DNA of 27,329 nt from a virus. The notes under the pieces are model-generated. The model was not told the origin of the DNA. It was given only the letters and a program-made list of their open reading frames with translations, and did no database searches. Position 1 is the first letter of the stretch. The number at the start of each line of letters is the position of its first letter. The stretch spans positions 1-27,329 of IMG/VR virus record IMGVR_UViG_3300013103_000050; one strand, given 5' to 3'. Positions 2,714-27,284 of the stretch are shown here, piece by piece. The position numbers were made by a program, and so were the translations under genes.

Positions 2714-3463
2714 ATGAATTATACTGTATATCAAACAACAAATATTGAAACTGGAAAAATTTACATTGGGTGTCATAAAACCCAGATCCCAAATGATGAA
2801 TATTTGGGATCTGGGAAACATTTAAAAAATTCAATAAAAAAATATGGTAAAGAAAATTTCACGAAAGAAATATTATTTAACTATGATAATGAATTTGAAA
2901 TGTATGAAAAGGAATTTGAAATAGTTGATGAAAATTTTATATGTAGACAAGACACATATAATATTGTTTTGGGTGGTTGTGGTGGCGGTCATTTAGGAAT
3001 GAAACACTCCAAAGAAACAAAAAATATAATGAAATATAATAATTTAGGAAATAAAAACCCTTTTTATGGAAAACACCATAATAATGAATCTAAGAAAAAA
3101 ATATCAAATACCCATAAAGGAAATCAATATAATTTGGGGAAATCGAGATCACAAAAAACTAAAAATAAAATATCCAAATCAATGAAAGGTTTATCCAAAT
3201 CACAAAAAACTAAAAATAAAATATCAGGTGAAAATAATTACAAATTTTCTGGATATTGGGTTACACCAAATGGAAACTTTATTACACTCAAAGAGGCATC
3301 ATTAAATATTGGTTCATCTTCACTTATTATGAACTGGTGTAAAAATTCAAATAAAATCATATCAAAAAATAATATTGGGAAATCTAAATATCTTCAATCA
3401 TTAAAAGATTATCCATTGGGAAAAACATTTAATGATATTGGATTTTCATTTATTCATAAATAG
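2714..3463 (+). mobile_element. Free-standing GIY-YIG homing endonuclease (Seg-like) with NUMOD3 repeats
   Basis: N-terminal YTVYQTTNIETGKIYIGCH...YLGSG...E is a GIY-YIG domain. NUMOD3-like HSKETK, HNNESKKKIS and SQKTKNKIS repeats follow. It is K/N-rich and intergenic between gp14 and gp15. Confidence 0.92.
3148..3225 (+). repeat. Exact 27-bp direct repeat (period 51 bp) duplicating a NUMOD3-like unit
   Basis: atcacaaaaaactaaaaataaaatatc at 3148-3174 and 3199-3225, encoding SQKTKNKIS twice. Confidence 0.9.
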
Positions 3464-11028: not shown

Positions 11029-11040
11029 GGGGATAAAAAT

Positions 11041-11178
11041 ATGAGCTATGTAGACAACGTAATAAACAAAAAACCAGAAGAATTTAAACATGATGTAATT
11101 GCAACAATCAAAGAAAAGATTGGTGGATATATTGATTGGCGTAAAAATCAAATTGCAAAGGAACTATTCAAAAAATGA
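11041..11178 (+). CDS. gp67: Small prohead core protein, gp67-like (45 aa, below the ORF-track cutoff)
   Basis: Hand translation: MSYVDNVINKKPEEFKHDVIATIKEKIGGYIDWRKNQIAKELFKK*. SD-like AAGGGG upstream, fills the gp20-gp68 gap, ATGA overlap with gp68, and the C-terminal K..IA..LF pattern fits gp67-like proteins. Confidence 0.75.
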   Translation: MSYVDNVINKKPEEFKHDVIATIKEKIGGYIDWRKNQIAKELFKK

Positions 11179-11600
11179 TTTCATATAAAGAGTTCAATGA
11201 AGATTTATTTGAAGATCTAAACGATGAACGATTATTTGACATCATTTTAGAAGAATATGAAGATGATGATTTATTATCGGAAGATGATACAAGTTTCATC
11301 ATGGAATATTTAGATTCAAATGAATTTGAAAACGAAGAATTTATTGCCGAAAAAACTTATTTAAAAAAGGTTTTGGGTGGTGGTAGACGTATTCGTAAAA
11401 AAGATACACGTAAATTAAAATCTTTACAGTCTGATGGTAAGGGTGGTGTTAAAAAACTATCTGCTGGAAAACGTCATAAACTAAAAAAACAAGCTAAGAA
11501 AGCATGGAAGAAAGGTGGTAGACGTTCGGCCTCTGCTAAAAAACGTGTAGCTAAAAAGACCAAGAAAACACAACGTAAAAAAGGTGGTACAATCTCATGA
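11175..11600 (+). CDS. gp68: Prohead core protein gp68-like
   Basis: Acidic N-half with several xxE sites and a very basic C-half (RRIRKK...AKKRVAKKTKK). Positioned between gp67 and gp21. Confidence 0.75.
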   Translation: MISYKEFNEDLFEDLNDERLFDIILEEYEDDDLLSEDDTSFIMEYLDSNEFENEEFIAEKTYLKKVLGGGRRIRKKDTRKLKSLQSDGKGGVKKLSAGKRHKLKKQAKKAWKKGGRRSASAKKRVAKKTKKTQRKKGGTIS

Positions 11601-12247
11601 TTTTAATGCGAGAAGAATTTGAAGATATTCAATCAAATATCATAACAGAAAGTGAAGGTAAAAAGACAATGTATATTGAGGGTGTATTTATGCAAGATAC
11701 ACTTAAAAATAGAAATGGTCGTGTTTATCCAAAAAGTGTTATGTCTCATGCGGTAAAACAATATAATGAGAAATATGTACAAAAACATAGATCATTGGGC
11801 GAATTAAATCATCCTACACAAGCAACTGTTAATCCTGAAAAAGCATGTCATTTAATTACACATTTAAAAGAAGATGGTAATAATTGGATTGGTAAAGCGA
11901 AAGTTTTAAATACTCCAATGGGGTCAATTGTTAAAAATTTGATTGAAGATGGTGTTCAATTAGGTGTTAGTTCAAGAGGTTTAGGTACTGTAAAAGAATC
12001 TAATGGTTCTAATGTTGTACAAAATGACTATTGGATTTCCGCTGTTGATACTGTATTTGATCCATCAGCACCAGATGCATTTGTTAATGGTATCATGGAA
12101 AACAAAGAATGGATTTTTGAAAATGGTGTATTAGTTGAACAAGATATTGAAAAAATTCAAGATGAAGTTAATATCCTTGTACACAAAAGACAGTTCAATG
12201 AAGATGCTATGGAAAAAATATTCCAAAAAGTCATTACAAATATATAA
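11597..12247 (+). CDS. gp21: Prohead protease gp21
   Basis: YIEGVFMQ, NRNGRVYP, GELNHP, GKAKVLNTPMG, GVSSRGLG and DPSAPDAFVNGIME. Confidence 0.97.
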   Translation: MILMREEFEDIQSNIITESEGKKTMYIEGVFMQDTLKNRNGRVYPKSVMSHAVKQYNEKYVQKHRSLGELNHPTQATVNPEKACHLITHLKEDGNNWIGKAKVLNTPMGSIVKNLIEDGVQLGVSSRGLGTVKESNGSNVVQNDYWISAVDTVFDPSAPDAFVNGIMENKEWIFENGVLVEQDIEKIQDEVNILVHKRQFNEDAMEKIFQKVITNI

Positions 12248-12250
12248 TTT

Positions 12251-12258
12251 TATAAATA
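12251..12258 (+). promoter_or_regulatory. Late promoter for gp22
   Basis: Exact intergenic TATAAATA with SD AGGAG downstream. Confidence 0.85.
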
Positions 12259-12304
12259 TATAAAATATATAAAAATAATTAATTATTATTAGGAGAAATT
12301 AACA

Positions 12305-13075
12305 ATGCCAAAATTATTCACAGACGAAGATAAAACAATTCTTTTTGAAGGTGTTGATATTGCTGATGATAATCAAAATGAATTCATGGTTAAAATGGAA
12401 TCAATGATTACATCAAAGGTATCTGAATTAAAAACTAAATTAAATGAAAGTTTTGAAGCTGAAAAAGATGGAATTTTAGTATCACACAAAAAAGAAATCA
12501 CAGAAGATATGGAAACAAAAATTGATTCATACCTTGATTATGTGGTTGAAACTTGGGTAGAAGATAACGAAATTGCTCTGGATGCAGGTATCAAAAGCGA
12601 AATCTTAGAAGGATTTGTTTCAGGTCTGAAAGATCTATACGAAGATAATAACATTAACCTTGATGAAGAATCAATTGATGTTGTTGCTAAAGCTGATGAA
12701 AAAATCAATGAACTACAAGGTGATTTAGCCGAATCAATTACTAAAATTGGTGAACTTAAAGAATCAATTGAAGATTTCAAACGTGGAATTATTATCGACA
12801 AATATTCAGACGGTTTAACTGAATCACAGATCGAAAAATTGGATACACTTGTAGAAGGTATTGAATTTGGTTCTGATGAAACATTCAATGAAAAAGTTAA
12901 AATCATCCGTGAGTCTTACTTCAAAGAAGAAAAAGATGATGATGATGATGATGGAGACAAGGATGATGATGATTCTACTGACTTGAAAAAGAAAAAGAAA
13001 GAAAAAGTAGATGAAGCGATAAAACTTGAATCTTTGAATGAAGATTACATTTCAAAATTAGCAAAACGCTTATAA
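12305..13075 (+). CDS. gp22: Prohead core scaffold protein gp22
   Basis: Acidic coiled-coil. KIDSYLDYVVETWVEDNEIALDAGIKSEILEGFVSGLKDLY, LTESQIEKL, KVKIIRESYF. Lies between gp21 and gp23. A (GAT)6 poly-Asp tract is at 12935-12952. Confidence 0.93.
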   Translation: MPKLFTDEDKTILFEGVDIADDNQNEFMVKMESMITSKVSELKTKLNESFEAEKDGILVSHKKEITEDMETKIDSYLDYVVETWVEDNEIALDAGIKSEILEGFVSGLKDLYEDNNINLDEESIDVVAKADEKINELQGDLAESITKIGELKESIEDFKRGIIIDKYSDGLTESQIEKLDTLVEGIEFGSDETFNEKVKIIRESYFKEEKDDDDDDGDKDDDDSTDLKKKKKEKVDEAIKLESLNEDYISKLAKRL

Positions 13076-13086
13076 AAATACGAAAG

Positions 13087-13094
13087 TATAAATA
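13087..13094 (+). promoter_or_regulatory. Late promoter for gp23
   Basis: Exact intergenic TATAAATA with SD AGGAG downstream. Confidence 0.88.
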
Positions 13095-13131: not shown

Positions 13132-14343
13132 ATGCCAAAACCATTAAATGTTCTAGTAGAGAACTGGGACGAAGTTATTAACAATGACAAGTTTGAAAAC
13201 ATTGAAGATAACTATAAACAAAAAGTTACTGCTCAGTTACTTGAAAATCAAGTAGCATTTAGTAAGCAAGCAACACTTAACGAAGCCGGAGAACCTATAA
13301 ATAGCGTTGGTGCTGGTGGAGTTGATAACTATGATCCAATTTTAATCAGCCTTGTAAGACGTATGGCTCCAAAATTGATTGCGTTTGACCTATTAGGTGT
13401 TCAGCCTATGTCCGGTCCAACAGGATTAATCTTTGCCATGAAATCACGTTATAACACTCCATCTGGTGATGAAGCGTTTATGGACGAAGCTAACACCGCT
13501 TTCTCTGGTGCTGGAACGCATACAGGTGATGCTCCAAATCCAACTGCAACAGGTACAGGTATGCCTACTGCTGATGCGGAAGGAAGTGATAATTGGAATG
13601 AAATGGCTTTCTCAATCGAGAAATCAAGCGTTGAAGCTAAATCAAGACAGTTAAAAGCTACTTACTCAATGGAATTAGCTCAAGATTTACGTGCTATTCA
13701 TGGTCTGGATGCTGATAACGAATTATCAAATATTCTTTCAACTGAAATCATTTCAGAAATTAACCGTCAAGTTGTTCGTACCGTATATGATGCGGCCGTA
13801 GAAGGTGCTTCTGATACTACCGTTCCTGGAGTTTTCGATTTAGATATTGATGCTGATGGTCGTTGGTCTGTTGAAAAATTCAAAGGATTGTTATTTAACA
13901 TTGAACGTGATGCGAATAAGATTGCTATTGAAACACGTAGAGGAAAAGGTAACTTTATCTTATGTTCTGCTGATGTTGCAAGTGCTTTACATTTAGCTGG
14001 TGCGTTAGACAATCAAGGTAATAAATTAGACAACAACTTAACTGTTGATCCAACTGGTGCTACTTTCGCAGGTGTGTATCGTGGTCGCATGAAAGTTTAT
14101 GTTGATCCATATGCTACAACTGATTTTTATGTTGTTGGTTATAAGGGTGCGAATCAGTATGATGCTGGTATGTTCTATTGTCCTTATGTTCCATTACAAA
14201 AATTGAGCGCAATTAGTCAAGATACGTTCCAACCTATCATTGGTTTCAAAACCCGTTATGGTATGGTTAGTAATCCTTTCACAAGTATTGCTACTGGCGA
14301 GAATGTATACTACCGCAAAGTTGCTGTAACAAACTTACTGTAA
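13132..14343 (+). CDS. gp23: Major capsid protein gp23
   Basis: YDPILISLVRR, GVQPMSGPTGLIFAMKSRY, EMAFSIEK, ELAQDLRAIHGLDADNEL, GRWSVEKFKGL, YCPYVPL and FQPIIGFKTRYG. Probable gp21 cleavage at LNE51/A52. Confidence 0.98.
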   Translation: MPKPLNVLVENWDEVINNDKFENIEDNYKQKVTAQLLENQVAFSKQATLNEAGEPINSVGAGGVDNYDPILISLVRRMAPKLIAFDLLGVQPMSGPTGLIFAMKSRYNTPSGDEAFMDEANTAFSGAGTHTGDAPNPTATGTGMPTADAEGSDNWNEMAFSIEKSSVEAKSRQLKATYSMELAQDLRAIHGLDADNELSNILSTEIISEINRQVVRTVYDAAVEGASDTTVPGVFDLDIDADGRWSVEKFKGLLFNIERDANKIAIETRRGKGNFILCSADVASALHLAGALDNQGNKLDNNLTVDPTGATFAGVYRGRMKVYVDPYATTDFYVVGYKGANQYDAGMFYCPYVPLQKLSAISQDTFQPIIGFKTRYGMVSNPFTSIATGENVYYRKVAVTNLL

Positions 14344-14370: not shown

Positions 14371-14403
14371 AAAAGGGTGGCATTTTTTGCTCACCCTTTT
14401 TTT
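14371..14403 (+). terminator. Rho-independent terminator after gp23
   Basis: aaaagggtg-gca...tgc-t-caccctttt hairpin followed by a T run. Confidence 0.88.
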
Positions 14404-14407
14404 GTTT

Positions 14408-14415
14408 TATAAATA
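14408..14415 (+). promoter_or_regulatory. Late promoter for the 140-aa gene
   Basis: Exact TATAAATA right after the terminator, with SD AGGAG before the ATG at 14456. Confidence 0.85.
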
Positions 14416-14455: not shown

Positions 14456-14878
14456 ATGGCAAGTGCTACAACAAGTGATTTTCAACATCATAGATTTATG
14501 AAGAAAGTCTTTCATGGGATTGATTGGACAGTTTATACTGATATTTTTGTTGCATTATTTTTAACATTACCAAACCTTGCAGGGTCAGGTGGTGCGGAAG
14601 TATCAACAACTGGTACAAACTACACAAGACAATCTGTTCCCGTTGGTGCAGTAAATTGGGATGTTGCAGGATTGGAATACTCTAACGCAAATGATATTAC
14701 TTATGGTGTGCCTAGTGCAACATGGGGAACTATTGTGGGTGCTGGATTGTATGATGCTTCAACAGGTGGTAATTTATTATATACTGCTCCATTGACTACA
14801 TCAAAATCAGTATCGGCTGGTGATGGTGCGCCAAAGATTTTGGCTAACCAATTAAGAATTACAAGAGCCACATGTTAA
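14456..14878 (+). CDS. Small virion structural protein of a widespread phage family (often annotated tail fiber or Gp80-like)
   Basis: FVALFLT..GAEVS..GTNYTRQSV...SNANDITY...TWGTIVGAGLYDASTGGNLLY..L..SKSVSAGD is a recognisable conserved phage motif set. Confidence 0.65.
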   Translation: MASATTSDFQHHRFMKKVFHGIDWTVYTDIFVALFLTLPNLAGSGGAEVSTTGTNYTRQSVPVGAVNWDVAGLEYSNANDITYGVPSATWGTIVGAGLYDASTGGNLLYTAPLTTSKSVSAGDGAPKILANQLRITRATC

Positions 14879-14906
14879 TTTAGATTTTTAAATTAATACA
14901 AAGATT

Positions 14907-14943
14907 AAAAGCCTACAAGTTGAAAGATTTGTGGGCTTTTTTT
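14907..14943 (+). terminator. Rho-independent terminator after the 140-aa gene
   Basis: aaaagcctacaagt-tgaaag-atttgtgggctttt stem with two G-U pairs and a GAAA-containing loop, then a T run. Confidence 0.82.
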
Positions 14944-14992
14944 GTTATATTAAATAATCATAAATATGTATGTTAATATATAGGAATATGAA

Positions 14993-16729
14993 ATGGCAGG
15001 TTATAAAACAACAGTAAAAAATGATGTACCAGTAAGTTTCCACACATTTGATTTAGATTCCAATTTAGATCATGGTGGACAAATTATTGATGAAATGAAT
15101 TCAAATAAAAATCCAATGTTTACCGTTGGTGATAATTATGAATTAGAATATATATCTTTAAATCCAATAGAACCATCTGATCAACATTCAATTAGAGTTG
15201 CCGAAGTATCAGAACCAAATGGGGATTATTCACCAATATATGCAAACATTCCCCATAATTCAGATTATAATATGGAACAATTTTCTATTGAATTTATTGT
15301 CAAGAAAAAACAAGCAAGTAGAACTGCAAATAATAATGAATGGTATTATAAACATAAATATACTCCATTAGTTAAAAAAGGTTCAAAAATCAATATTTAT
15401 TATAGTGATTTATATAATACAACGGATAGTCTTAAAGCTATTATTGGTGGACGTACTGTAACCCATAGTGAATCTAATAGTTGGCCCCTTTGGAATGTGG
15501 TAAATCATTATGTTTTAACTTATGGTACTGAACAAATAGATGTCAATGAATATAAAATTACATTGAGAATGTATTTAAATGGAAGAAATATTAGTACATC
15601 AACTGCCAATTATTTTGATTCTCCACCAAATGTTATTACAGGTGAACAATGGTTTCTTTTTGGTAATGGTGGTAATAATCCATTAACAGATTATACTACA
15701 GAAGATTTACAATTTGATCAATTTGCTATATATAATTATGTATTAACAAAAGAACAAGTATCAAACCATTATAGAAAAACCAAACAATATGTCGATTTAA
15801 TTAAAACAGATCAACCAACATATTATTGGCGTTTTAATGATACATCATTATTAAATAATACTATATATAATACCGTTGGTGGAATAAATGGTACATATTA
15901 TAATTCTTATGTAAAGGGAAATCCTGGACCCGAACACATACAGGATTCTATGTCAACGTATTTCAATAATGGTGGTACTGGTTATATTTACAATAGTGGT
16001 GGTTCATATAGTAATTATATTCCCATGTTGAAAACAAATCAGAATTATACTGTTGAATTTTGGTTTCAAATTGATCAAAATCATAAAGGTGTTATTTTTA
16101 CATCCCATGAAGATAAACCAAATCATAGAGGTTTAACAGTATATGCAAACTCTAAATTTGAAAATGAAACATCGGGCGTTATTCAATGTAATGAATCAAT
16201 TAAATATCAATTACACTCTCCGGATGGTGAAAACTATACTGATGGTAAATGGCATCATTTAGTATTTAGACGTTCCGGTACTACATTATATATGACCATT
16301 GATGGTAATGTTGTGGATGAAATGATAGCACCACTATTAGGTACAAATGGAGATCCTGGCGGTATTCATTTAATGTCATTAGATCCATATACATATACAA
16401 CGGATGGTAGTTTATCTGAACTTGCTTTATATCAATATGCTATTCAAGATATGCAAATTAATTCACGTTATCATTTTTCAACAAGACATAAAATATTTGG
16501 TTTTACATTATTAGAGGGTCAGGGTGTATCATCTATTGTAAGATTTTATGATAATATTACAGGTGAAAAGGTTGGTGAAACAATAAGTGATTCTACTGGT
16601 GAATATACATTTTATACATACAGTAATAAAAAATTGGATATTGTGGCATTATTACCTGATAACATAACAACACGTTATAGAATTCATGCACCAATAGTTC
16701 CAGCCGAATTTGACGATCCACATCTGTAA
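14993..16729 (+). CDS. Tandem LamG/concanavalin A-like lectin domain protein with a C-terminal transthyretin/carboxypeptidase-regulatory-like module
   Basis: Two units (D.P.SFHTFD / DQPTYYWRFND ... FSIEFIVK / YTVEFWFQ ... WHHLVFRR ... FDQFAIY / LSELALY). C-terminal HKIFG..VRFYDNITGEKVGETISDSTGEYTF. CATAAATA promoter variant at 14959-14966. Confidence 0.72.
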   Translation: MAGYKTTVKNDVPVSFHTFDLDSNLDHGGQIIDEMNSNKNPMFTVGDNYELEYISLNPIEPSDQHSIRVAEVSEPNGDYSPIYANIPHNSDYNMEQFSIEFIVKKKQASRTANNNEWYYKHKYTPLVKKGSKINIYYSDLYNTTDSLKAIIGGRTVTHSESNSWPLWNVVNHYVLTYGTEQIDVNEYKITLRMYLNGRNISTSTANYFDSPPNVITGEQWFLFGNGGNNPLTDYTTEDLQFDQFAIYNYVLTKEQVSNHYRKTKQYVDLIKTDQPTYYWRFNDTSLLNNTIYNTVGGINGTYYNSYVKGNPGPEHIQDSMSTYFNNGGTGYIYNSGGSYSNYIPMLKTNQNYTVEFWFQIDQNHKGVIFTSHEDKPNHRGLTVYANSKFENETSGVIQCNESIKYQLHSPDGENYTDGKWHHLVFRRSGTTLYMTIDGNVVDEMIAPLLGTNGDPGGIHLMSLDPYTYTTDGSLSELALYQYAIQDMQINSRYHFSTRHKIFGFTLLEGQGVSSIVRFYDNITGEKVGETISDSTGEYTFYTYSNKKLDIVALLPDNITTRYRIHAPIVPAEFDDPHL

Positions 16730-16740
16730 GGATAATTACA

Positions 16741-19700
16741 ATGCCTAATTTATATAAACTAACAATACCAAATACAGAAATTTCAAATGATTTATCTGAT
16801 TTTCCAGTATTATTAAATTTTGATACAACTTCTGGTTCAACTGATATAGATTCAACAGATCTATTTAATCACTTTGCATTTCCGGAAAGTGTTGATGATG
16901 ATTTCACGGGTGAAGATAATACTCAGCCTGATAGTAAATTGTGGATGGATGTTGATTTTGAATTGGATATAGGTGGCGTTACAAATACAATAGCTGATAT
17001 TGAAATATTAAACAATGAACTTAAAATGGATATTATTACTGATATTAGTAATGGTTATATTAGATCTAAATATAAAGTAAGTGGTGATTTTGATGTTCAG
17101 GTTAATTTCAATATACCCAATGGTATTCCAGTTCTAAGCGATAGTTGGGAATTTGGATTACGTTTTATAACAGATAAACACGATCCATTATTATTCCCTA
17201 TCGAAAATTTTACTATGGCAAGATATGGTGGTAGTAACGGTCCGTATTTATTTACTGGTACGGATATTACTAATATTACTGGTGGTAGTAATGATTTAAG
17301 TGGAAAATTAAGACTAACAAGAACTGGAAGTGTTATAACTGGTTATTATTGGAATGGTACTACATGGGTTGGTTTTGGTTCAGGTATTTCAAGTGCTTTA
17401 TCAATAGGATATTTTCAACTTGATATAAGAACGTGGAGTATTGATCATTCAATTAAAGTTGAATATGATAATTTTATTTTAAATTCCGGTAATATTGAAT
17501 GGGATGCAGAAGATTTACCAGAAGATTTAAATTTATTAAAAGTTGAATCACACACAAAACACAATAAAGTAGTTATGGGATTAAATCCATATGCTTATTG
17601 GCGTTTGGGTGAAATAACTGGCACTACTGCTTATGATTTATCTGGAAATAATTATAATGGTGCTATTGATGCTGGTGTTGTAATTAATCAATCCGGATTA
17701 TTAGTTAATGATGTAAATAAATCTATGCGTTTTACTGGTGATGGTATTGATTTTATTGATATTGGATCTGATGAATTAAATCAAGTTTCTATTAGTTGTT
17801 TGGTTAAATTTGAAGATTTAACATCAAATCAAATAATATTTAAAGAGGGTGGAAATGGAAACGGATTTGGTGTTGGTATAGTTGATTCTAAATTAAGTAT
17901 TGGTGTAACCTCAAATTCATCTAATACAAATTGGGGATATGCCACAAGTAATTTATCACTAAATCAAATATATCATATTGTTTGGATCTTGGATGTAACA
18001 AATTCCAAAATTCAAATATATCTTGATGGTGTTTTAATTGTAGATGAAACTGCTGTTATTGGTACTCATGATGGAACATGTAATTGTGCTATTGGAACAT
18101 CTAATTGTTATACGGGGTCATTTCAAAGTGCTCTTAGTGGTTTAGGGAATGATGAACCGTTTATTGGTACTATTGATGAAGTTGCAATATTTAATCAAAC
18201 ATTAAATATTGCAGAAGTTAATGAATTATATAATTCCACATTAGATAACATTATAGAATCATGTTCAATTGAAATTGATAGATGGGATCATAATAACAAT
18301 CAAGCTCAATTATGGGTTAAAGTTCCTTATGTTTATTCAAATGATGATACATTATTAACATTATCTAAAATGGAACACAATTATTCAATATATGTAAAAA
18401 GTTTAAAGCCTGTTGCATATTGGCGTTTAGGTGAATCAACAGGAAGTACAGCTTTTGATGAAATGGGGTCATATAATGGTACTTATATAAATTTACCAAC
18501 ATTAAATCAAAGTGGATTATTAGTTGATGATGGTGATGCTTGTGTTTATTTGGATGGTGTAGATCAAATAATTTCTGCACCATTTATATTTTCGGGTGAC
18601 ATGGATTCAACGGATTTAACATATACATGTTTAGTTAATCTTCCTGCGTTTAATACTTATGGAGCATTTTCTAATCAAGGATTATATAATTATGAATATA
18701 CAGTTGATGCAACGGGTCATGTTGTTGTATGGTATCAAGATGCTACAATAATAACATCAACAAATACATTAACATTAAATGAAACATATTTTCTTACATT
18801 AACAAAAGATGGAACAAGTCATACATTATACATATATGATATTAATGGTTTGGTTGAAAGTGTAAATGTAACTTCAAGTAAAAGTTTTACTTGGGATGAA
18901 ACAAATTTTTTCATTGGTAGCAATGGAAGTTCTAATTATGCTAATGTAAAAATTGATGAAGTTGCCATATTTGATTATGTATTATCATTACCGGAAATTA
19001 CAGAAATATATAATCAATCAATAGCAATAATTCAAAATCATGATATTGGTATTACTGGTGAAAGTCCTGCACAAGATGTATGGACAGAATATACTGCTGT
19101 TTATCATTTAAGTTCAGATGGTGCGGATAGTACAGCAAATGCGTTAGATGGTTCTATGATCAATATGGATTCATCTAATATAATTGATGGTGGAATAGGT
19201 AAGGCATTATCTTTTGATGGTACAACAGAATATATTAATATTCCACATAATGCATTATTTGATTCTGTTGATGGTTATCTTATAGAAAATACAATTAGAC
19301 CATTAACAACATGGAACCCTGTTGATCAAAAATACGCTACAATTATATCAAAAAATGCGGTTTGGGGTACTGCTGGTTTTTCACAAAATTTATATTTAAG
19401 AAATACATCAAATGATGTTAGATTAGAACATTATATGAGGGATGGTGGTAGATTAGTTAATATTTTGGGGACAGGTATAGTAGATTATACTGCTGATTTC
19501 AAATCACATTCATTTGTTTGTACTGCATTAACTGCTATTGATTCATATACAGATTCTTCTATTGATACACAAGATGTTCAAACTCTTGTAACATCATATA
19601 ATATGGGGTCAGATGATGTTCATATTGGATTAGGATATAGTGCTGATCCAAATGATGTTGGTTTCAATGGTATCATCCAAGAAGTTAGAATTGGAACATC

Positions 19701-20187
19701 AAGTAAACCTGTTGAATGGATAACAGCAAATGATCAAAGTATAAAAGATACTTTGATTATATATGAAAATACACAATTTAGAACAATTTCCGGAACCATA
19801 ACAGAAAGTTTTGATGTTGTGAATTGGTTGGCAAGAGCATGGTTAATGAGTGATGGTTCATTGTCTGCCGAAGAAATTACATCAAGTGGCACATTTGATT
19901 TAACTATTCCATTTGAAAGATCTGATACACATATGGTAACCGTATCGCCTATAATTGGGGACAGTTGGATAGAATCAAATATCACATTATTGGACGATTT
20001 GGTTTTTCCAACTAATCCAACAACAATACCATATTATTATAAATGTATTATTGCAGGTATAACCGGAACAAGTGAACCAACATGGACAGTTGGAAATGGT
20101 GATCAAATTACAGATAGTGGTGTAACATGGGAATTAGTAGAAGGAATGATACAACCAATAACTCAATTTCCAGTAATTCCTAGCTAA
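16741..20187 (+). CDS. Large multidomain adhesin-like protein (DUF2341-like scaffold, three LamG-like domains, CBM-like tip)
   Basis: DUF2341-like segments DFPVLL, IEIDRWD..AQLWVKVP and QDVW..YTAVYHL. Two duplicated AYWRLGE..G.TA.D...IDEVAIF modules. C-terminal YYYKCIIAGITGTSEPTW..G..ITDSGVTW. Confidence 0.68.
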   Translation: MPNLYKLTIPNTEISNDLSDFPVLLNFDTTSGSTDIDSTDLFNHFAFPESVDDDFTGEDNTQPDSKLWMDVDFELDIGGVTNTIADIEILNNELKMDIITDISNGYIRSKYKVSGDFDVQVNFNIPNGIPVLSDSWEFGLRFITDKHDPLLFPIENFTMARYGGSNGPYLFTGTDITNITGGSNDLSGKLRLTRTGSVITGYYWNGTTWVGFGSGISSALSIGYFQLDIRTWSIDHSIKVEYDNFILNSGNIEWDAEDLPEDLNLLKVESHTKHNKVVMGLNPYAYWRLGEITGTTAYDLSGNNYNGAIDAGVVINQSGLLVNDVNKSMRFTGDGIDFIDIGSDELNQVSISCLVKFEDLTSNQIIFKEGGNGNGFGVGIVDSKLSIGVTSNSSNTNWGYATSNLSLNQIYHIVWILDVTNSKIQIYLDGVLIVDETAVIGTHDGTCNCAIGTSNCYTGSFQSALSGLGNDEPFIGTIDEVAIFNQTLNIAEVNELYNSTLDNIIESCSIEIDRWDHNNNQAQLWVKVPYVYSNDDTLLTLSKMEHNYSIYVKSLKPVAYWRLGESTGSTAFDEMGSYNGTYINLPTLNQSGLLVDDGDACVYLDGVDQIISAPFIFSGDMDSTDLTYTCLVNLPAFNTYGAFSNQGLYNYEYTVDATGHVVVWYQDATIITSTNTLTLNETYFLTLTKDGTSHTLYIYDINGLVESVNVTSSKSFTWDETNFFIGSNGSSNYANVKIDEVAIFDYVLSLPEITEIYNQSIAIIQNHDIGITGESPAQDVWTEYTAVYHLSSDGADSTANALDGSMINMDSSNIIDGGIGKALSFDGTTEYINIPHNALFDSVDGYLIENTIRPLTTWNPVDQKYATIISKNAVWGTAGFSQNLYLRNTSNDVRLEHYMRDGGRLVNILGTGIVDYTADFKSHSFVCTALTAIDSYTDSSIDTQDVQTLVTSYNMGSDDVHIGLGYSADPNDVGFNGIIQEVRIGTSSKPVEWITANDQSIKDTLIIYENTQFRTISGTITESFDVVNWLARAWLMSDGSLSAEEITSSGTFDLTIPFERSDTHMVTVSPIIGDSWIESNITLLDDLVFPTNPTTIPYYYKCIIAGITGTSEPTWTVGNGDQITDSGVTWELVEGMIQPITQFPVIPS

Positions 20188-23100
20188 TGGCATATACACC
20201 AAATAACTCATATCAATTCAGTGAATATAATTCACCATCATCATCATTTAATTTTGATTTTGAAATTGAATTATATCCTACTGTCTTATATTCAGGTGAA
20301 GAAAGTGTATTAGATGATTTAAAAATATTTCCATTTTCACCAGAATTACCATTTAATTTTGGTTTATGTGATAAAGAATTAAATTGGGAATACAATAATG
20401 TGTGTACTCACAATAATTCATATACAGGTGAAAATACCTTTATTGAATTCACACAAGATAAAAATTATGAATATAATTTCGCTATATGTGATTTATGGGA
20501 TTATGGTGATGATATTGAATTATCTGAAACATGTGGTATGTTTATTAATACTGGACAAAGTTGTGAATTTGATATTATCACTTTCAAAAATCAAGAATTT
20601 AATTTTGATATTTGTGGTGATGGTAATATTAATGTAAGAAATAAAAATTTAACCAATATTCAACTTGATTATTTAGAACCATGTGAAATCATATATAGAA
20701 TGGAGCCTATTTATTCAGGTGAATCCATTTCAACTGCATTACATATTTCTGGAAAAAATTACCAATTTGATATCACTTTATGTGATAGTGAAACAAATCC
20801 TCAACCAATTGATATAATACCTCACGTATTTTCTTTTAATAGACCGTGGAATTATATATGTTCATCAATAACACTTGATGCTTCTACTGGTGAAAGTGCG
20901 TCTGCTACTATTCTTGGTAGTTTAAAATTACCATTAGATCCTACTTATACAGGCGAAAGTGCCGATTTAACTAATTTAGGTTTAGATATTTCATTCACAA
21001 ACATGAAGGGATATACAGGTGAAGAAGCTGATGTTGATTTCTTTACTAGACCATTTGTTACCTTTGATATTCAAAATCTTTCAGGTGAATATGGTGAAAC
21101 CGATATATATCGTTCAATTTTTATTGGAACAGATATCACTTATACAGGTGAAGAAGTTGATGCTGATATGGAAACTATCGGACCAATTAATCCAATAACA
21201 GATAGTTATACAGGTGAAGAAGTTGATGCTGATTTTGCAATTACTGCAATATTAAACCCATTAATGTATTCCGGTCAAGAAGTTGATGCTGATTTAAAAG
21301 ATGATCCATTAATTGAATTAGAAAATCCAACAATAGATACTGGTGAAGAAGTTGATACTGATTTGGAAATTTTCCAAGCACCAGCATTAACATTGGATTC
21401 TATGTATGGTGGTGAATTGGGGTCAAGTTATTTAAATGTAACTTATGCTTTGAGTTCTATTACTTATACAGGTGAATATGCCGAATTTAGTGTATTAAAT
21501 TTAGATACTGTTTTTGCTGTTGATTATAATACAGGTGAAGAAGCTGATGCTGATATTAAAACAAATTCACCGGATGATTTGGAACCAAATGCTGATAGTG
21601 GTGAATATTCTGATGCATTTGTGGCAACATCATTAGTATTATTCCCTAGAACATATACAGGTGAATATAGTAATGGTGCAATGAGTACAATACCTGCCAT
21701 ATATTTTGCTCCAAAATCATACGCTGGTGAACGTGCTGAAATTGATGAATTAATTGAAGAAACAGAATATTATATTGCTATTGGTGGTGAATATTCTGAT
21801 GCTGGATTATCAAGAGAAATTTCTTTTACACCATATAGTAATTGGACAGGTGAGGAAGTTAAAACAGAAGCACTTAATTTAGAGTTCACTATATTTGAGG
21901 CTAATTCATTAATCAATGGTCAATCAATGAGTGTTGTATTCACAACCATTGCCGGACCTTCACTAGCATTTGATTCTATGTGGACAGGTGAATATGCTGA
22001 ATCTGAGACAGGAATTTTATATTATCCTATATTTATTTTAGATACAATTATCGGTTCACAGGTTATGTATGATGGTTTGGGTGGTGCTGGTGGATTGAAT
22101 TTCTGTACAGATTGTTGTCCAATACCAAATCAATTTGGTGAAAATGATGATCCATTAATTTTTGATGTTAGACCACAAGACAGGGAAGTATGGGGTCGAT
22201 GTGGTCCGGATGAAGATACACAATTCCATACAAGTCTAACGGCTGGAATTAGATTTGAACCTATTGCCTATCATGGTGAATATGTTAAATCATACATAGA
22301 CAAGCAATATATGGCTTTTGGTGAAATGGATGGGTCATGTGATGATGTTCTTGAATTTTGTGAACCATTAGTTTGTATTGATGGAAAAGATAGAGAGGGT
22401 GAGGATTGTGTTCACGATGATTTATATTGGTTATATAATAGAACACCAATTCCAACTAAATTACCAAGGGTTAATGAACTTGAACCTGTTATAACAACTG
22501 GCGAGAGAATTGTTTTATGGTGGGAACCTGTTGATGATTTTGTATCACGTATGGAACAAAAATTCACAGTTGATTTAACACTTCCATCATTGGTGGATAC
22601 TTTTTATACTGGTGAAGATTTTATTATTAGTTTATCGTATGATGAATCTGATTGGAAATATCCATTCAAATTAAATCGTGGTGGAGAACAAGGATACTTT
22701 ACATTTGAAGCTAACGAGAATATGAGATTTTGTCCTGGATATTTAATTCCAAGAGGCGATAATGTTATATTTGATTTTGCTTCTGCAATATTCACAGAAT
22801 GTTTTGGTTATTTTGCTAAAACAGGTGAAATGGTAAAACCTGTTGATTTATTAAGTGAAGCTGGAATGTCTGCGAGAAGTACAAAGAATGGTCAAGTTAT
22901 GAAGTTCTTATTACGAGTGACTGGACCTTGGGAATTAAATTCTACTAATGGACAAAAATTTAGATTTGAGTTATCAACTACTGTTCTTATAAAACCGAAT
23001 AGAATTAAAAGTGGTCAATCTGCATTAGCACATTTATATCGTCCTCCTACATATTGGACTATGGCAAGTGGTGAAATGGCACGTTTAGCACAACTTGACG

Positions 23101-23597
23101 TATCATTGCCTGGAATTAGTTGGATAACCGAAGATGGTTGTATTGAAAATATATTCAACCCATTGACAGAAGATGGTGATATTGATTTAGAGTATGAAAA
23201 CTTTGAACGATGTGTTGAATTTATGCCTTACTTTGGTAAAGTTGAAGCGATATGTGATGATAGTGTTTATATTTATCACGTTATAATAAGACCTGAAATG
23301 ATGGGTAATAATTTTGTAGTTGATAAAATTTCATTTGCAACTGAAAAATTATTTAACTTAGAATGTAATTCAGGTGAAGATGTTTATATTCAAGAATATG
23401 TTGGTGAAGATGGAGCAGAAATTAATGTAGATTTAGAAACATTCCCTGTTATTCCATTAGATGATTTTAAATTAATGGGTACTGGTGAGAATTCATTTTC
23501 TATACTAAATACTACAAATACATTTGAATTTGAATTATATAGTAGTGAAGAAGCTGATGCTATTGTTAATGGTGAATTAGTCTTGGAGTTTGGATAA
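20187..23597 (+). CDS. Large acidic, Cys-containing hypothetical protein with many [Y]-[T/S]-G-[E/Q] repeats
   Basis: 1136-aa ORF overlapping the upstream stop. 18 motif copies at about 21-22 aa spacing in aa~232-605, plus further copies on both sides. No family recognised. Confidence 0.8.
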   Translation: MAYTPNNSYQFSEYNSPSSSFNFDFEIELYPTVLYSGEESVLDDLKIFPFSPELPFNFGLCDKELNWEYNNVCTHNNSYTGENTFIEFTQDKNYEYNFAICDLWDYGDDIELSETCGMFINTGQSCEFDIITFKNQEFNFDICGDGNINVRNKNLTNIQLDYLEPCEIIYRMEPIYSGESISTALHISGKNYQFDITLCDSETNPQPIDIIPHVFSFNRPWNYICSSITLDASTGESASATILGSLKLPLDPTYTGESADLTNLGLDISFTNMKGYTGEEADVDFFTRPFVTFDIQNLSGEYGETDIYRSIFIGTDITYTGEEVDADMETIGPINPITDSYTGEEVDADFAITAILNPLMYSGQEVDADLKDDPLIELENPTIDTGEEVDTDLEIFQAPALTLDSMYGGELGSSYLNVTYALSSITYTGEYAEFSVLNLDTVFAVDYNTGEEADADIKTNSPDDLEPNADSGEYSDAFVATSLVLFPRTYTGEYSNGAMSTIPAIYFAPKSYAGERAEIDELIEETEYYIAIGGEYSDAGLSREISFTPYSNWTGEEVKTEALNLEFTIFEANSLINGQSMSVVFTTIAGPSLAFDSMWTGEYAESETGILYYPIFILDTIIGSQVMYDGLGGAGGLNFCTDCCPIPNQFGENDDPLIFDVRPQDREVWGRCGPDEDTQFHTSLTAGIRFEPIAYHGEYVKSYIDKQYMAFGEMDGSCDDVLEFCEPLVCIDGKDREGEDCVHDDLYWLYNRTPIPTKLPRVNELEPVITTGERIVLWWEPVDDFVSRMEQKFTVDLTLPSLVDTFYTGEDFIISLSYDESDWKYPFKLNRGGEQGYFTFEANENMRFCPGYLIPRGDNVIFDFASAIFTECFGYFAKTGEMVKPVDLLSEAGMSARSTKNGQVMKFLLRVTGPWELNSTNGQKFRFELSTTVLIKPNRIKSGQSALAHLYRPPTYWTMASGEMARLAQLDVSLPGISWITEDGCIENIFNPLTEDGDIDLEYENFERCVEFMPYFGKVEAICDDSVYIYHVIIRPEMMGNNFVVDKISFATEKLFNLECNSGEDVYIQEYVGEDGAEINVDLETFPVIPLDDFKLMGTGENSFSILNTTNTFEFELYSSEEADAIVNGELVLEFG
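21140..21233 (+). repeat. Exact 28-bp direct repeat (period 66 bp) encoding YTGEEVDAD
   Basis: ttatacaggtgaagaagttgatgctgat at 21140-21167 and 21206-21233, with degenerate copies near 21267 and 21339. Confidence 0.9.
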
Positions 23598-24682
23598 TGT
23601 CTTGTGAATTGAATGAAAATACAATACCCTTAGATGCTGATATAATATATGAGGGTCATTTGGATGGATTTGGTGATGTTGACACATATTCATTTGATAT
23701 GATTGAGAATGAAACAATTACATTCAAGGTGAATATTGTTAATGATAGTGGTTCAGGTACATTACCAAATGCCACATTAAAATTATTTAAAATATTTGAT
23801 GGTAATGTAATTGATTTAGGAACATCATATTTACAAAGTCAGGTTAATGTATTTAACTATGATGGTGTTGTTGGGGATTATTATTTCTGTTTAGAAAACC
23901 TATATTCTTGTAATTATAGTGTGTTGGTAGAATTCACAGATTATGATGGTATTGTATTCACAAGGATGTATTCTTATTCAGGTGAAGCTATGGATGGTGA
24001 GTGGCCGATTGTTGAAATTCCACCATGCAATCAACCCGTGGCATATGAAATAACAAACGGTAAATTACCATTAGATATATCAAATGAACCGGAAGATTTT
24101 ACATTTGAATCTGCTGGAATTATATATGGAGTTCCTGGAGAACAAGATTGTGAAAGTGATGATGATGAAACACCAAGTTGGAACTGGAAACGATATGATG
24201 ATGAAACCGGAATACATCCACTTGGCAAAGAATATGATTTCATAGTCAGAGCATATTTTATTCAATATCCATACGTTTTTATTGAAAAAGCATTTAAAAT
24301 TTGTGTGTTTAATAATTGGGATTATGATAAACCTGATTTATTAAATCTACAAAGAACCGAATATGATGTTTCATATGTTGAAGTAGAATTACCGGATCAA
24401 TCACCATTATGTCCACCATGTACGGAGACTAAGGAAATTATTACAGAACGTATTATTAATTGGAAAGAATATGATATAGAAGGATTCCTGAAACGTATGG
24501 ACAAACTTATGTATGAAAAACAATGTAAAGTTAGACATGAATTACCTGAACTTGATAACGTTTATCATGAGCCTGAAATTATCATAAAAGAAGAAAAACT
24601 ATGTGATATTTGTCCAGAAGATGAAGAAGAAAAACCATTTGTGTCTGAACCAATTCAATCTTGTCCGGTATGTACAGAATGA
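23597..24682 (+). CDS. Hypothetical protein with a PPC-like beta-sandwich, an He_PIG/Ig-like domain and a Cys-rich acidic tail
   Basis: GHLDGFGDVDTYSF...GDYYFCL is PPC-like. YEITNGKLP...AGIIYGVP...YDFIVRA is He_PIG-like. CPPC, CDIC and CPVC occur in the C-terminus. Confidence 0.6.
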   Translation: MSCELNENTIPLDADIIYEGHLDGFGDVDTYSFDMIENETITFKVNIVNDSGSGTLPNATLKLFKIFDGNVIDLGTSYLQSQVNVFNYDGVVGDYYFCLENLYSCNYSVLVEFTDYDGIVFTRMYSYSGEAMDGEWPIVEIPPCNQPVAYEITNGKLPLDISNEPEDFTFESAGIIYGVPGEQDCESDDDETPSWNWKRYDDETGIHPLGKEYDFIVRAYFIQYPYVFIEKAFKICVFNNWDYDKPDLLNLQRTEYDVSYVEVELPDQSPLCPPCTETKEIITERIINWKEYDIEGFLKRMDKLMYEKQCKVRHELPELDNVYHEPEIIIKEEKLCDICPEDEEEKPFVSEPIQSCPVCTE

Positions 24683-24706: not shown

Positions 24707-24997
24707 TTGTCGGTTCCAATAGGTAGAATATCGGAAATATGTAGTGGACATCAATGTTATCCACCATCAATTGCTATTTCTGCAAGTTCTAACGTATTTG
24801 CGGAATTACTACCAGTTCACAGAGTTGGGGACAGTTACATACCACATTGCTGTTTAAGTTGTCATGGGATAACAACAGCGAGGGGATCATCATCTGTTTA
24901 TGTAAACGGTAGACCTTCTGCACATATCGGAGCTATGGCGAGTTGTAGTAGTGTAATGATAACCGGAGCATCAACCGTTTGGATTGAGGGATCTTAA
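24707..24997 (+). CDS. PAAR-family baseplate spike tip protein (gp5.4-like), TTG start
   Basis: GHQCYPP, SSNVF..LPVHRVGD..PHCC..CH, GSSSVYVNGRP. TTG at 24707 preceded by SD AAAGGAG, with GATAAATA at 24681-24688. Confidence 0.92.
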   Translation: MSVPIGRISEICSGHQCYPPSIAISASSNVFAELLPVHRVGDSYIPHCCLSCHGITTARGSSSVYVNGRPSAHIGAMASCSSVMITGASTVWIEGS

Positions 24998-25389
24998 TGA
25001 GACAAACACAAGAAAATTTTTATTCAGATTTAGATTTAACATTTAATACACATCCACTAAACAGTGATATATCCGTATTATTTGATGAAAATAGTATTGA
25101 ACAAAATATGTATAATATATTAATGGCAAATAATGGTGATGCTAAATTTCATCCCGAAAAATGTCTTGGTATTAGGGATATGTTATTTGAACCTATTAAT
25201 ATTATCACAGAAGAACAATTAAGAATAAAAATAACAAATATATTAGAATCGTGGATGCCGAGAATTGAGGTAATACACATTGATGTTGAATCAATTAGGG
25301 ATGAAGGTTATAGAATAACAATATCATACATAACGATAAATATTGTAAATGAACAACAAACTGTATTGTTTTTAGATAGGATAAGATAA
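24997..25389 (+). CDS. gp25: Baseplate wedge subunit gp25
   Basis: YSDLDLTF..HP..DI...DENSIEQ..N, P...LGIRDMLFEP, ESWMPRIEV, YRITISY. Confidence 0.93.
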   Translation: MRQTQENFYSDLDLTFNTHPLNSDISVLFDENSIEQNMYNILMANNGDAKFHPEKCLGIRDMLFEPINIITEEQLRIKITNILESWMPRIEVIHIDVESIRDEGYRITISYITINIVNEQQTVLFLDRIR

Positions 25390-25393
25390 CAAA

Positions 25394-27155
25394 ATGGGAA
25401 AAAATTTAAAAGTAAACAAACTTGATTTTGATGATATAAAAGAAAATTTAATTGAGTTTCTAAAAGGTCAAGAAAAATTTAAAGATTATAATTTTTATGG
25501 TTCTGGATTTGATGTTATATTAGATTCATTGGCATATAATGCATTTTATATGGGAACGTTTGCTCATTTGTTAGCCAACGAAGCATTTATTGATTCTGCT
25601 AATTTAAGAGAAAGTTTAACAAGTAAAGCCAAATTATTTAATTATATTCCAAAATCATCATTTTCTGCTATTGCTGATGTTAATGTCAAATTAGATATTA
25701 ATGAAGATAATGAACCTGCTGATGAAAAGTTTTTAATTGAACGGGGTGAATTTGCGGAATCCGGTAATAATCTATCAGGTTTAATAAGAAAATTCATTTT
25801 AATTGATGATGTGTATGTTTATAACAAATCAATTGCAACAAGTGGTTTTCTTTATCAGACTGATACACTTGAAATATATGAAGGTGAATATATTACAGAT
25901 CACTTCACAAAAGATATTTCACAAAATTCAACTTGGAACCAAGTATACAGATTAACAGCAAAAGATGTTGATTATCGTACAATAAGAATTAAAGTATATG
26001 ATAGTGATACAAGTAGCAATTATCATACATATAAATTAGCTTCTGATTTTATGTTAATTAATGGCGATAGTCAAGTATTTTTTATTACTACTGATGATAA
26101 AGGGTATTATGAGATATTATTCGGCAATGATGTTTACGGTAAAGCTCTTGAAGATGGAAATTACATTGAAATAACATATGTCGAAAATAAAGGCGAATTG
26201 GGTAATGATGCATCATTATTTGATTATATTGGTAAAGATATAATTGGTAGAGATTTAATGCCTGTTGATGTAACCATCAATACTGAAATGGATTCTGATG
26301 GTGGTCGTGGTGAAGAAACATTAGAAGAACTTAAATACAATGTACCACATCATTATAAACGTCAAAATCGTTTGGTAACTATTGAAGATTATAAGTCTGT
26401 TCTTTTAGCTGAATACAATAATATTCAATCTATTAATGTTTGGGGTGGTGAAGATAATTATCCTAAAGTTTATGGTAGAGTATTTATTTCAATTAAACCA
26501 AAAATAGGTAATATTTTATCATCTAAGGCAAAAGAGAAAATACAAGAAACAATACTACACAAATATAACATTGTTACCATTGATACAACAATTGTTGATG
26601 TTGATTTCTTATACTTAAATTTAACAAATAATACCAAATTTAAACCATTAGATACGGATAAATCTGCTGGTGAAATTGCAAATTTGGTTAATGATACTAT
26701 TCATGATTATGATGATTTTCAAGTATCACGTTTCGATGGTTATTATTCAGATGCTTCTTTATATGAGCAAATATTAAATGCAGATCCATCAATCATTAGT
26801 ACATATAATAATATTACATTAGAAAAACAAACCAAACCATCATTGGAAACTTCACAATCTTATGTGATTGATTTTAATGGTGCGATTTTTAAAAATACAA
26901 TTCTAAGTAATGAATTTACATTTAGAGGATTACCAAGTTATTTTGATGATGATGGTGAGGGTAATATTATAATCCATTATGAAAGTTTAATTGATGGTGC
27001 AAAATATACTTATCTTGATGAATATTTTGGTACAATTGATTATGATACTGGAATATTAAATACTTCCAATATTATTATTGATAATATTACAGATGGTGAT
27101 TTTTTAATTACAACCGCTACACCAATCGAACCTGATTTTTATCCTTTAAGAAATA
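25394..27155 (+). CDS. gp6: Baseplate wedge subunit gp6 (native 3' end displaced by the terminal inversion; the ORF-track end at 27202 is probably not native)
   Basis: LDFDDIKENL..FLKGQ..FKDYNFYGSG...LAYN, NEAFIDSA..R, FGNDVYGK, RLVTIEDY, VWGGEDN and YGRVFISIKP. Homology-like sequence runs to ...FYPLRN at about 27154. Confidence 0.93.
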
Positions 27156-27284
27156 TGAATAGTTATTTTCTTCATCTAACCACTCAAAATACGTTGTTAT
27201 AAATGAAACAAACGTTGGATATTTATCGTGAGCATATGAAGGTAGTTGACTTGTGATTAATGGGGCAAGTTTATTTATTGTCAT
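27156..27284 (-). CDS. N-terminal 43 aa of a gp7-like baseplate wedge protein on the inverted segment
   Basis: Hand translation from the ATG at 27284: MTINKLAPLITSQLPSYAHDKYPTFVSFITTYFEWLDEENNYS, matching the Q.P....YP.FV.F...Y.EWL pattern of gp7-like N-termini in T4-like phages. Confidence 0.75.

Follow-up and report, generated by a model that had tools for sequence, protein, structure and literature searches.

It was only in 2023-2026 that chain-like bacteriophage fibres, in which dimers of a small protein sit on a rope, came to be recognised; they were seen in a few podophages and, in Felixounaviruses, as neck whiskers of two dimers. In phage A1002, 11 dimers are arranged in tandem on the nozzle-rope protein's fibre-dock domain, each augmenting a β-sheet, and the rope spans 268 amino acids (aa) for the 11 dimers, or about 24 residues per dimer (PMC13730344). 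For phage GP4, that paper describes five dimers joined by a separately encoded rope, and GP4 fiber I (PDB 8JOU; Zheng et al., 2023, J Mol Biol) is taken here as it and PMC12609058 present it. In phage Bas63, two whisker dimers wrap the N-terminal rope of the collar "like beads on a string", and the rope completes their incomplete sandwiches (PMC12609058). Here we analyse a five-gene cassette in a 27,329-nucleotide (nt) stretch of viral DNA (IMG/VR record IMGVR_UViG_3300013103_000050, positions 1 to 27,329; hereafter the window) that probably encodes a fibre of this kind.

The five open reading frames (ORFs), all on the + strand, lie between gp23 and the PAAR, gp25 and gp6 genes of a T4-like phage, and our ORF calls agree exactly with those of a first-pass annotation made from the DNA letters. 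That annotation proposed an attachment organelle in which an abundant 140-aa subunit builds a filament organised by a YTGE-repeat protein and capped by LamG lectin tips. We find the subunit to be strongly backed, by its Gp80-family sequence and fold, and the scaffold to be backed circumstantially, by its repeat period, by complete co-occurrence with the subunit and by analogous genes with 20-aa repeats beside Gp80 genes elsewhere.

The Gp80-family subunit and its candidate rope

The product of the first cassette gene, 140 aa long, is a Gp80-family monomer as judged by both its sequence and its predicted fold. It matches Pfam family PF23140 ("Podophage GP4 fiber I protein gp80") with an E-value (E) of 1.6e-28 and 100 bits, where the curated cut-off is 27 bits, over residues 7-136 of the 140, and phmmer aligns it with chain a of PDB 8JOU (E 2.9e-9). 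The AlphaFold2 (AF2) model, made from an alignment of 56 sequences, reaches a predicted local distance difference test score (pLDDT) of 88.8 and has an N-terminal helix (residues 8-20) followed by the strands of a β-sandwich, in agreement with the family fold of an N-terminal helix, a small sheet and an incomplete β-sandwich. Its top Foldseek match is GP4 fiber I (8jou_a), with template modelling (TM) scores of 0.79/0.81 and a root-mean-square deviation of 2.5 Å over 140 columns; ranked below are the Bas63 whisker chains, then the 7-7-1 "tail fibers" entry 9RKV and then the Sf14 neck. Membership of the Gp80, or GP4 fiber I, family would also entail homodimers formed through hydrophobic and N-terminal helix contacts. 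No second Gp80 paralog was found among the 17 main window proteins. Subunit homologs without the partner genes of the cassette also occur in many small phages of the phage collection, and the family carries the PHROG 240 label "head protein". A separate observation concerns the 130-kb relative L004, in which positions 9986-12313 hold two Gp80 paralogs, one of 145 aa and a divergent one of 141 aa, separated by homing-endonuclease genes; these two bead types recall gp40 and gp41 of A1002.

The 140-aa protein fits a high-copy part, since its gene has its own late promoter, a strong Shine-Dalgarno (SD) sequence and flanking terminators (Table 1). These signals, of which the first-pass annotation reported the promoter, the SD and a terminator, can be read from the sequence as an exact TATAAATA box, an AGGAG and hairpins, and the terminator that follows gp23 isolates the gene from read-through. 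The annotation had also likened this layout to those of gp19 and gp23. The likeness holds for gp23, whose promoter, SD and terminator are identical in kind (its TATAAATA box lies at 13087), but not for gp19, which has an SD and a terminator and no promoter of its own. Altogether, TATAAATA occurs eight times in the window, a count that is not above chance expectation for such AT-rich DNA; all eight boxes are on the + strand, and most lie just 5′ of start codons, including those of gp14, gp20, gp22, gp23 and the 140-aa gene. The near-match CATAAATA is possibly a weaker promoter driving the four large genes.

We infer from architecture and co-occurrence that the 1136-aa product of the fourth gene serves as the rope: it is the likely candidate because it carries tandem YTGE units and because repeat genes with a 20-aa period are typical beside Gp80 genes. 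A position-specific scoring matrix finds 24-27 YTGE units in this protein, compared with at most 2 in 50 shuffles and 0-1 in the LamG and 361-aa proteins, so the repeat giant described at first pass is real. The units are strand-prone and recur with a period of 21-22 aa, the tandem core occupying residues ~233-620 (nt ~20883-22046), and the motif x-[TSAGN]-G-[EQ] appears 33 times, 18 of them in tandem at 20-23 aa spacing. The protein has a pI of 4.05 and a net charge of about -143, with a conserved Cys-containing module at about residues 850-1025. Searches returned no Pfam, PHROG or PDB match for it, its family is rare (8 clusters among 5.8 billion), and the window holds no other repeat protein.

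A second motif, [YF]-x-F-x-[IL]-x-x-C-[DG], is found in residues 1-230 of the same protein (window 20187-20880), for example as FNFGLCD, YNFAICD, FNFDICG and YQFDITLCD, where copies of it and sparsely placed YTGE units follow each other in turn, about 45-55 aa apart. The Moby, ACP17 and G001 homologs have comparable h-x-F-x-F motifs at their N-termini, and the motif may mark a second kind of docking or anchoring site.

Every T4-like lineage checked that has the 140-aa subunit also has a repeat protein. Common to these relatives are a relaxed repeat, [YF]-x-G-[EAS]-x-[AV]-x-x-[DE]-[LI], and the Cys-containing C-terminal module; they comprise Moby (gp167), ACP17 (gp072), G001, X1, V45v66 and the IMG/VR loci L004-L006, L009, L088-L090, L093 and L094. 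Where units were counted, the relatives have about 8-21 each, which gives a range of about 8-27 units across lineages with the window included.

The expectation that a repeat gene should accompany a Gp80 gene comes from a survey of small phages, which covered 73 non-T4 loci with a Gp80 homolog and 49 distinct ORFs starting within 150 nt (≤150 nt) 3′ of the Gp80 gene. Self-periodicity exceeded the 95th percentile of background in 21 of these 49 downstream ORFs, against about 2.5 expected, and in 18 of the 21 the period was 20 or 40 aa. The repeat genes begin 3-4 nt after the subunit gene, and inspection shows strict 20-aa repeats, some with a phi-x-G-E-S core (L063). Directly after its gp80 homolog, the GP4-like phage RPZH3 encodes a 325-aa protein (ORF87) with about 11 G-x-G-x-A-x-I-x-L repeats; the neighbouring RPZH3 ORF89 is GP4 gp81, a 12-copy chain of 8JOV. 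In a further pattern, small-phage 20-aa-repeat proteins (L054:1015-1740, L043:2084-2809, L063:1149-2030 and similar) end in a separate run of roughly 10-aa x-x-E-x-W repeats, such as EKWEPEAGTPETWAAVDPATEIW, which is possibly the anchoring end of the small-phage ropes.

Gene order, partner proteins and the window

Among 2,594 records of the phage collection with a gp23 homolog, homologs of the 140-aa, 578-aa and 361-aa proteins occur in an identical set of 21 (16 Stenotrophomonas, 2 Acidovorax, 2 Xanthomonas and 1 Variovorax). The co-occurrence elsewhere that the first-pass annotation had proposed as a check is thus seen in these records and again in IMG/VR loci, where fetching by the 140-aa subunit or by an alignment of 578-aa homologs brings up the same gene set. 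Queried as single sequences, the repeat protein and the 578-aa protein retrieved no loci beyond the closest relative. The minimal contiguous block, found in L093 and L094, runs 140-aa, 578-aa, repeat, 361-aa, PAAR, gp25, gp6. The 578-aa gene adjoins the subunit gene in L091-L094, and a 361-aa homolog lies directly 3′ of the repeat gene in nearly all lineages, the order rope-361-aa-PAAR-gp25-gp6 being kept in ACP17, X1, V45v66, G001, L088-L090, L093 and L094. More broadly, the block stands beside gp5, PAAR, gp25 and gp6 in Moby, ACP17, X1, V45v66, G001 and L088-L094; in L004, gp5 and gp6 are interspersed among its members, and the 578-aa homolog comes directly after gp6.

Both LamG proteins of the first-pass annotation are confirmed, with PF13385 scores well above the 27.6-bit cut-off (Table 1). 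The module that the two were said to share at their C-termini is not: BLASTP finds only short LamG-boundary motifs in common, at best with E 0.002 over 35 aa, and gives E-values above 2 for the C-terminal regions themselves. The 578-aa protein matches PHROG 31125 over its full length (7e-74) and has full-length homologs in the 21 phage records named above. Because it is conserved along its whole length, it resembles an adaptor, unlike a fast-evolving tip, and it is a candidate adaptor or lectin component. In Ps15 (OL702939/NC_070951), its homolog is labelled "putative amine dehydrogenase".

The 1148-aa multi-LamG protein is the variable member, since a full-length homolog is found only in the closest relative, L005 (3e-124), and the other lineages carry different LamG genes or none in its place; L088, for instance, has a 1942-aa LamG protein with a weak match (8.7e-15). 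It is a candidate host-specific binding protein. Its C-terminal 60 aa match PHROG 20658, "head decoration". LamG giants are annotated as structural in relatives.

For the 361-aa protein, the PPC/Ig label given at first pass survives at the level of a lead: atlas scores for PPC, He_PIG and Big_2 are 0.80-0.86, below the reliability line of 0.9, no Pfam or PDB match was found for the window protein, and the L004 homolog has a sub-threshold He_PIG match (E 0.008). We therefore describe it as possibly PPC/Ig-like. Pfam, PHROGs and NCBIfam give none of the five cassette proteins a match to a tail-fibre family or to fibritin, and no family-level counterpart of the classical T4 fibres (the long fibres gp34-37, the short fibres gp12 and the fibritin wac) is seen in the cassette.

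The window as a whole represents a module of late structural genes from a distant T4-like phage, with a guanine-cytosine content of ~30% and the gene order gp13, gp14, gp15, terminase, sheath, tube, portal, gp21, gp22, gp23 and later PAAR, gp25 and gp6. The closest isolate match of gp23 among major capsid proteins is at ~58% (pelagiphage HTVC008M). Within the cassette, the two stop/start overlaps noted at first pass are both TAATG, one joining the 1148-aa and 1136-aa genes (at 20187) and the other the 1136-aa and 361-aa genes (at 23597).

Table 1. Positions in the window of the cassette genes, their expression signals and the flanking genes
Feature	Position	Strand	Basis or remark
gp23	13132-14343	+	directly 5′ of cassette
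Intrinsic terminator after gp23, GGGTG...CACCC hairpin and T-run	~14371-14404	+	sequence reading
Exact T4-type late promoter box TATAAATA	14408-14415	+	41 nt 5′ of 140-aa gene ATG
Shine-Dalgarno AGGAGAA	14443-14449	+	AGGAG 7 nt ahead of 140-aa gene ATG
140-aa Gp80-family fibre/whisker monomer ("bead")	14456-14878	+	Pfam, PDB and predicted-fold matches
Strong intrinsic terminator after 140-aa gene, 15-pair stem and T-run	~14907-14946	+	sequence reading
CATAAATA, 7/8 match to late promoter box	14959-14966	+	27 nt 5′ of 578-aa gene
578-aa LamG protein, conserved core member	14993-16729	+	PF13385 at 1.2e-18, 68.2 bits
1148-aa multi-LamG protein, lineage-variable member	16741-20187	+	PF13385 at 6.2e-25, 88.5 bits, 2 stretches
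1136-aa acidic YTGE-repeat protein, candidate "rope"	20187-23597	+	repeat counts, lineage-wide presence
361-aa conserved partner	23597-24682	+	PHROG 29085 at 5e-25; TAATG-coupled to 1136-aa gene
Genes for the PAAR spike tip and the baseplate wedge proteins gp25 and gp6	24707-27202	+	Pfam PF05488, PF04965, PF21379; directly 3′ of cassette

Other features of the window lie outside the cassette. A homing endonuclease gene stands between gp14 and gp15 (window 2714-3463; PHROG 314, 6e-40). The 810-aa tail sheath (window 6445-8877) has inserted Ig-like domains at residues ~240-470, which match domains of giant virion structural proteins and baseplate wedge PHROGs. Two genes are inserted between gp13 and gp14, at window 713-1474 (253 aa) and 1510-2001 (163 aa). 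Their products, which could be neck or collar parts, have no Pfam or PDB match and no sequence link to the GP4 or Bas63 collars; the 163-aa protein has a weak Ig-like PHROG match.

A proposed beads-on-a-string fibre and its alternatives

On balance, we consider it probable, with appreciable room for doubt, that the cassette encodes a chain-like virion fibre of the GP4/A1002 and Bas63/Sf14 whisker type. In such a fibre, homodimers of the 140-aa protein would be threaded onto the 1136-aa protein, each short YTGE unit completing the open β-sandwich of one subunit by strand complementation. With two units per dimer, a GP4-like ratio that is itself inferred, a fibre would carry about 12-13 dimers; with one unit per dimer, as the A1002 spacing would suggest, it could carry up to about 27. 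The resulting range of roughly 12-27 dimers would far exceed the 2-11 of the solved examples. The C-terminal module of the rope, together with the coupled 361-aa protein and the 578-aa LamG protein, may form an anchor, adaptor or cap; the latter two proteins are placed in the same assembly because of conserved synteny. Host-specific carbohydrate binding would come from the lineage-variable 1148-aa LamG protein. The fibre would be mounted on the tail or baseplate side, as suggested by the position of the block almost always directly 5′ of PAAR-gp25-gp6. The first-pass annotation had left head, neck and tail open, and gene order, the basis of this placement, speaks more for an appendage linked to the tail or baseplate than for a head fibre.

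Several observations weigh against this assembly. The evidence that ties the 140-aa subunit to the YTGE repeats is indirect, and the two genes are not neighbours in the window, where they lie 5.3 kb apart; in G001 they are tens of kb apart, and in L093 and L094 the 578-aa gene alone separates them. With a pI of 6.2, the subunit shows no charge complementarity to the rope candidate. Homology between the YTGE units and the small-phage ropes was considered and dropped: a hidden Markov model of the unit found all of the T4-like repeat proteins and zero small-phage ropes, so rope homology is unproven and the link between the two groups of repeat proteins is architectural only. RPZH3 ORF87, the candidate GP4-type rope, has no PDB sequence match even at E 10. 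A collar or anchor was sought among the gp13-gp14 insert genes and the cassette proteins, and no Pfam or PDB match and no collar-like protein came to light. The AF2 prediction for the 1136-aa protein (pLDDT 31, no confident fold) contains no β-solenoid or autonomous repeat fold, a result that is more uninformative than supportive, as its alignment of only 6 sequences is too weak to decide. Finally, a short rope like the two-dimer Bas63 collar extension could hide at the end of another protein.

This last possibility leads to the most serious competitor, in which the 140-aa protein forms a short whisker or garland on some other rope, perhaps an extension at one end of the 578-aa LamG protein, a neck collar or a tail-fibre protein, and the YTGE protein is an independent fibrous or baseplate-peripheral component. 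The ropes of Bas63 and Sf14 are indeed short N-terminal extensions that hold two dimers only, and 7-7-1 has 36 small homodimers as a baseplate "garland", its 139-residue chain 9RKV_A being the third-best fold match. The failure of the YTGE profile to detect other ropes points the same way, as do the minimal cassettes, in which the 578-aa gene and not the repeat gene follows the 140-aa gene directly, and the distance between the two genes in G001. Yet the four genes stay together in every lineage examined, the period of 21-22 aa agrees with that of roughly 20 aa in the repeat proteins beside other Gp80 genes, no self-folding domain is predicted for the YTGE repeats, and no alternative repeat protein is available in the window. 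We accordingly regard a separate whisker or garland as rather unlikely, though a serious contender.

A role on the head, with the cassette providing a capsid fibre or decoration, is improbable despite the labels of PHROG 240 and PHROG 20658 and the place of the cassette directly after gp23 in the window. These labels are putative annotations, the "head decoration" module of the 1148-aa C-terminus recurs in only 5 unrelated phage records, and only the window and L005 have the genes after gp23, whereas they lie among gp5, PAAR, gp25 and gp6 in Moby, ACP17, X1, L004, L088-L094 and G001; every solved fibre, moreover, has its anchor on parts of the neck or tail and not on the capsid. We give very little credence to the idea that only the small gene is structural and that the four large genes act elsewhere, for instance as secreted proteins or on the host surface. 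Proteomic data are not on record for any relative, and no relative of the large proteins is solved or named; set against this, their genes are embedded in and co-oriented with the late structural module, are translationally coupled and precede PAAR-gp25-gp6 in many lineages, and relatives' LamG giants carry the structural annotation mentioned above.

Returning to the bead fibre, a bolder version can be imagined in which this T4-like clade has replaced or supplemented its trimeric tail fibres by a very long, baseplate-mounted bead fibre, with an acidic rope of ~25 units holding 12-27 dimers, a LamG adaptor, a PPC/Ig-like cap and exchangeable LamG lectin tips or branches, its length being set by repeat number. 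This is a speculative extension that we hold to be possible and not probable.

Significance and comparison with known fibre systems

Viewed against the literature, the cassette does not represent a new kind of organelle, because the subunit and candidate rope map onto the chain-like fibre of GP4, Bas63 and A1002. A mapping of the entire set onto a characterised fibre system, which that annotation named as grounds for giving up its proposal, is realised in part, for the subunit and rope only. The subunit family and the fibre type (GP4 / A1002 / Bas63) were known before; what is new is that the host clade is T4-like, that the rope candidate is giant, acidic and encoded on its own, and that LamG and 361-aa partners are conserved alongside. 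The literature searched contains no report of the chain-like fibre type in T4-like phages. The subunit family spans a T4-like clade with cultured representatives, among them phages of Stenotrophomonas, Acidovorax, Xanthomonas and Variovorax, in which the cassette genes are now labelled "hypothetical" or mislabelled as "head protein", "glycosyl hydrolase" or "baseplate hub". The candidate rope is several times longer than any known and comes with two conserved partners besides. If the proposed assembly is correct, the 10 kb of recurrent structural genes that are now "dark" would gain an annotation, fibre length would be tunable by repeat number, and the LamG proteins would be likely host-range determinants in phages considered for biocontrol.

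The five systems closest to this arrangement differ in how much of it they share. Anabaena myophage A-1(L) (gp82-gp81-gp80; PMC10966104) has, in a separate operon, a neck bead-chain of about 100 nm with an anchor, about 14 small beads and a distal carbohydrate-binding module, which is the logic that the first-pass annotation proposed; its beads are trimers that join head-to-tail without a rope and are not of the Gp80 family, making it an analogue and not a relative. The Agrobacterium myophages 7-7-1 and Milano (gp014 homodimers; PDB 9RKV; PMC12796354) also use small homodimers, 36 of them, at a myophage baseplate. There, a rope is not described and the garland contacts conventional trimeric tail fibres, and the fold match to 9RKV_A (139 residues) is weak (TM 0.47, E 0.025), with chain A not confirmed as the garland protein.

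The Pseudomonas podophage A1002 (gp40/gp41 dimers on nozzle-rope gp39) is closer, with many dimers on a long fibre-dock region with an Ig-like domain at its end, a spacing of ~24 rope residues per dimer that is near the 21-22 aa period of the window, and two subunit paralogs, as in L004. Its rope, in contrast, is fused to the nozzle protein, its fibre wraps the tail tube, and no sequence relationship has been demonstrated between its rope and the YTGE repeats. The Felixounaviruses Bas63 and Sf14 (PDB 9MT4, 9C39) are myophages, like the phage of the window, and share the whisker monomer fold with Foldseek probabilities of 0.99-1.0, although their whiskers have only 13-16% sequence similarity to the window subunit. 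They differ in their neck location and in their short rope on the N-terminus of an Ig-like collar, which holds only 2 dimers, and LamG partners are not described for them.

GP4 offers the most extensive likeness. Both subunits are 140 aa long and share a Pfam family, superposition of the predicted fold gives a TM of 0.8 across the full length, subunit and rope candidate have separate genes, and an accessory attachment role is likely in both. In GP4, a podophage, each fibre has 5 dimers and an Ig-like collar anchors it at the tail adaptor, and the candidate rope is a neutral protein of ~325 aa whose gene stands directly beside the subunit gene. The window, in contrast, belongs to a T4-like myophage and combines the Gp80-family bead with a very acidic candidate rope of 1136 aa and 24-27 units, encoded 5.3 kb 3′ of the subunit gene, and with conserved LamG and 361-aa partners.

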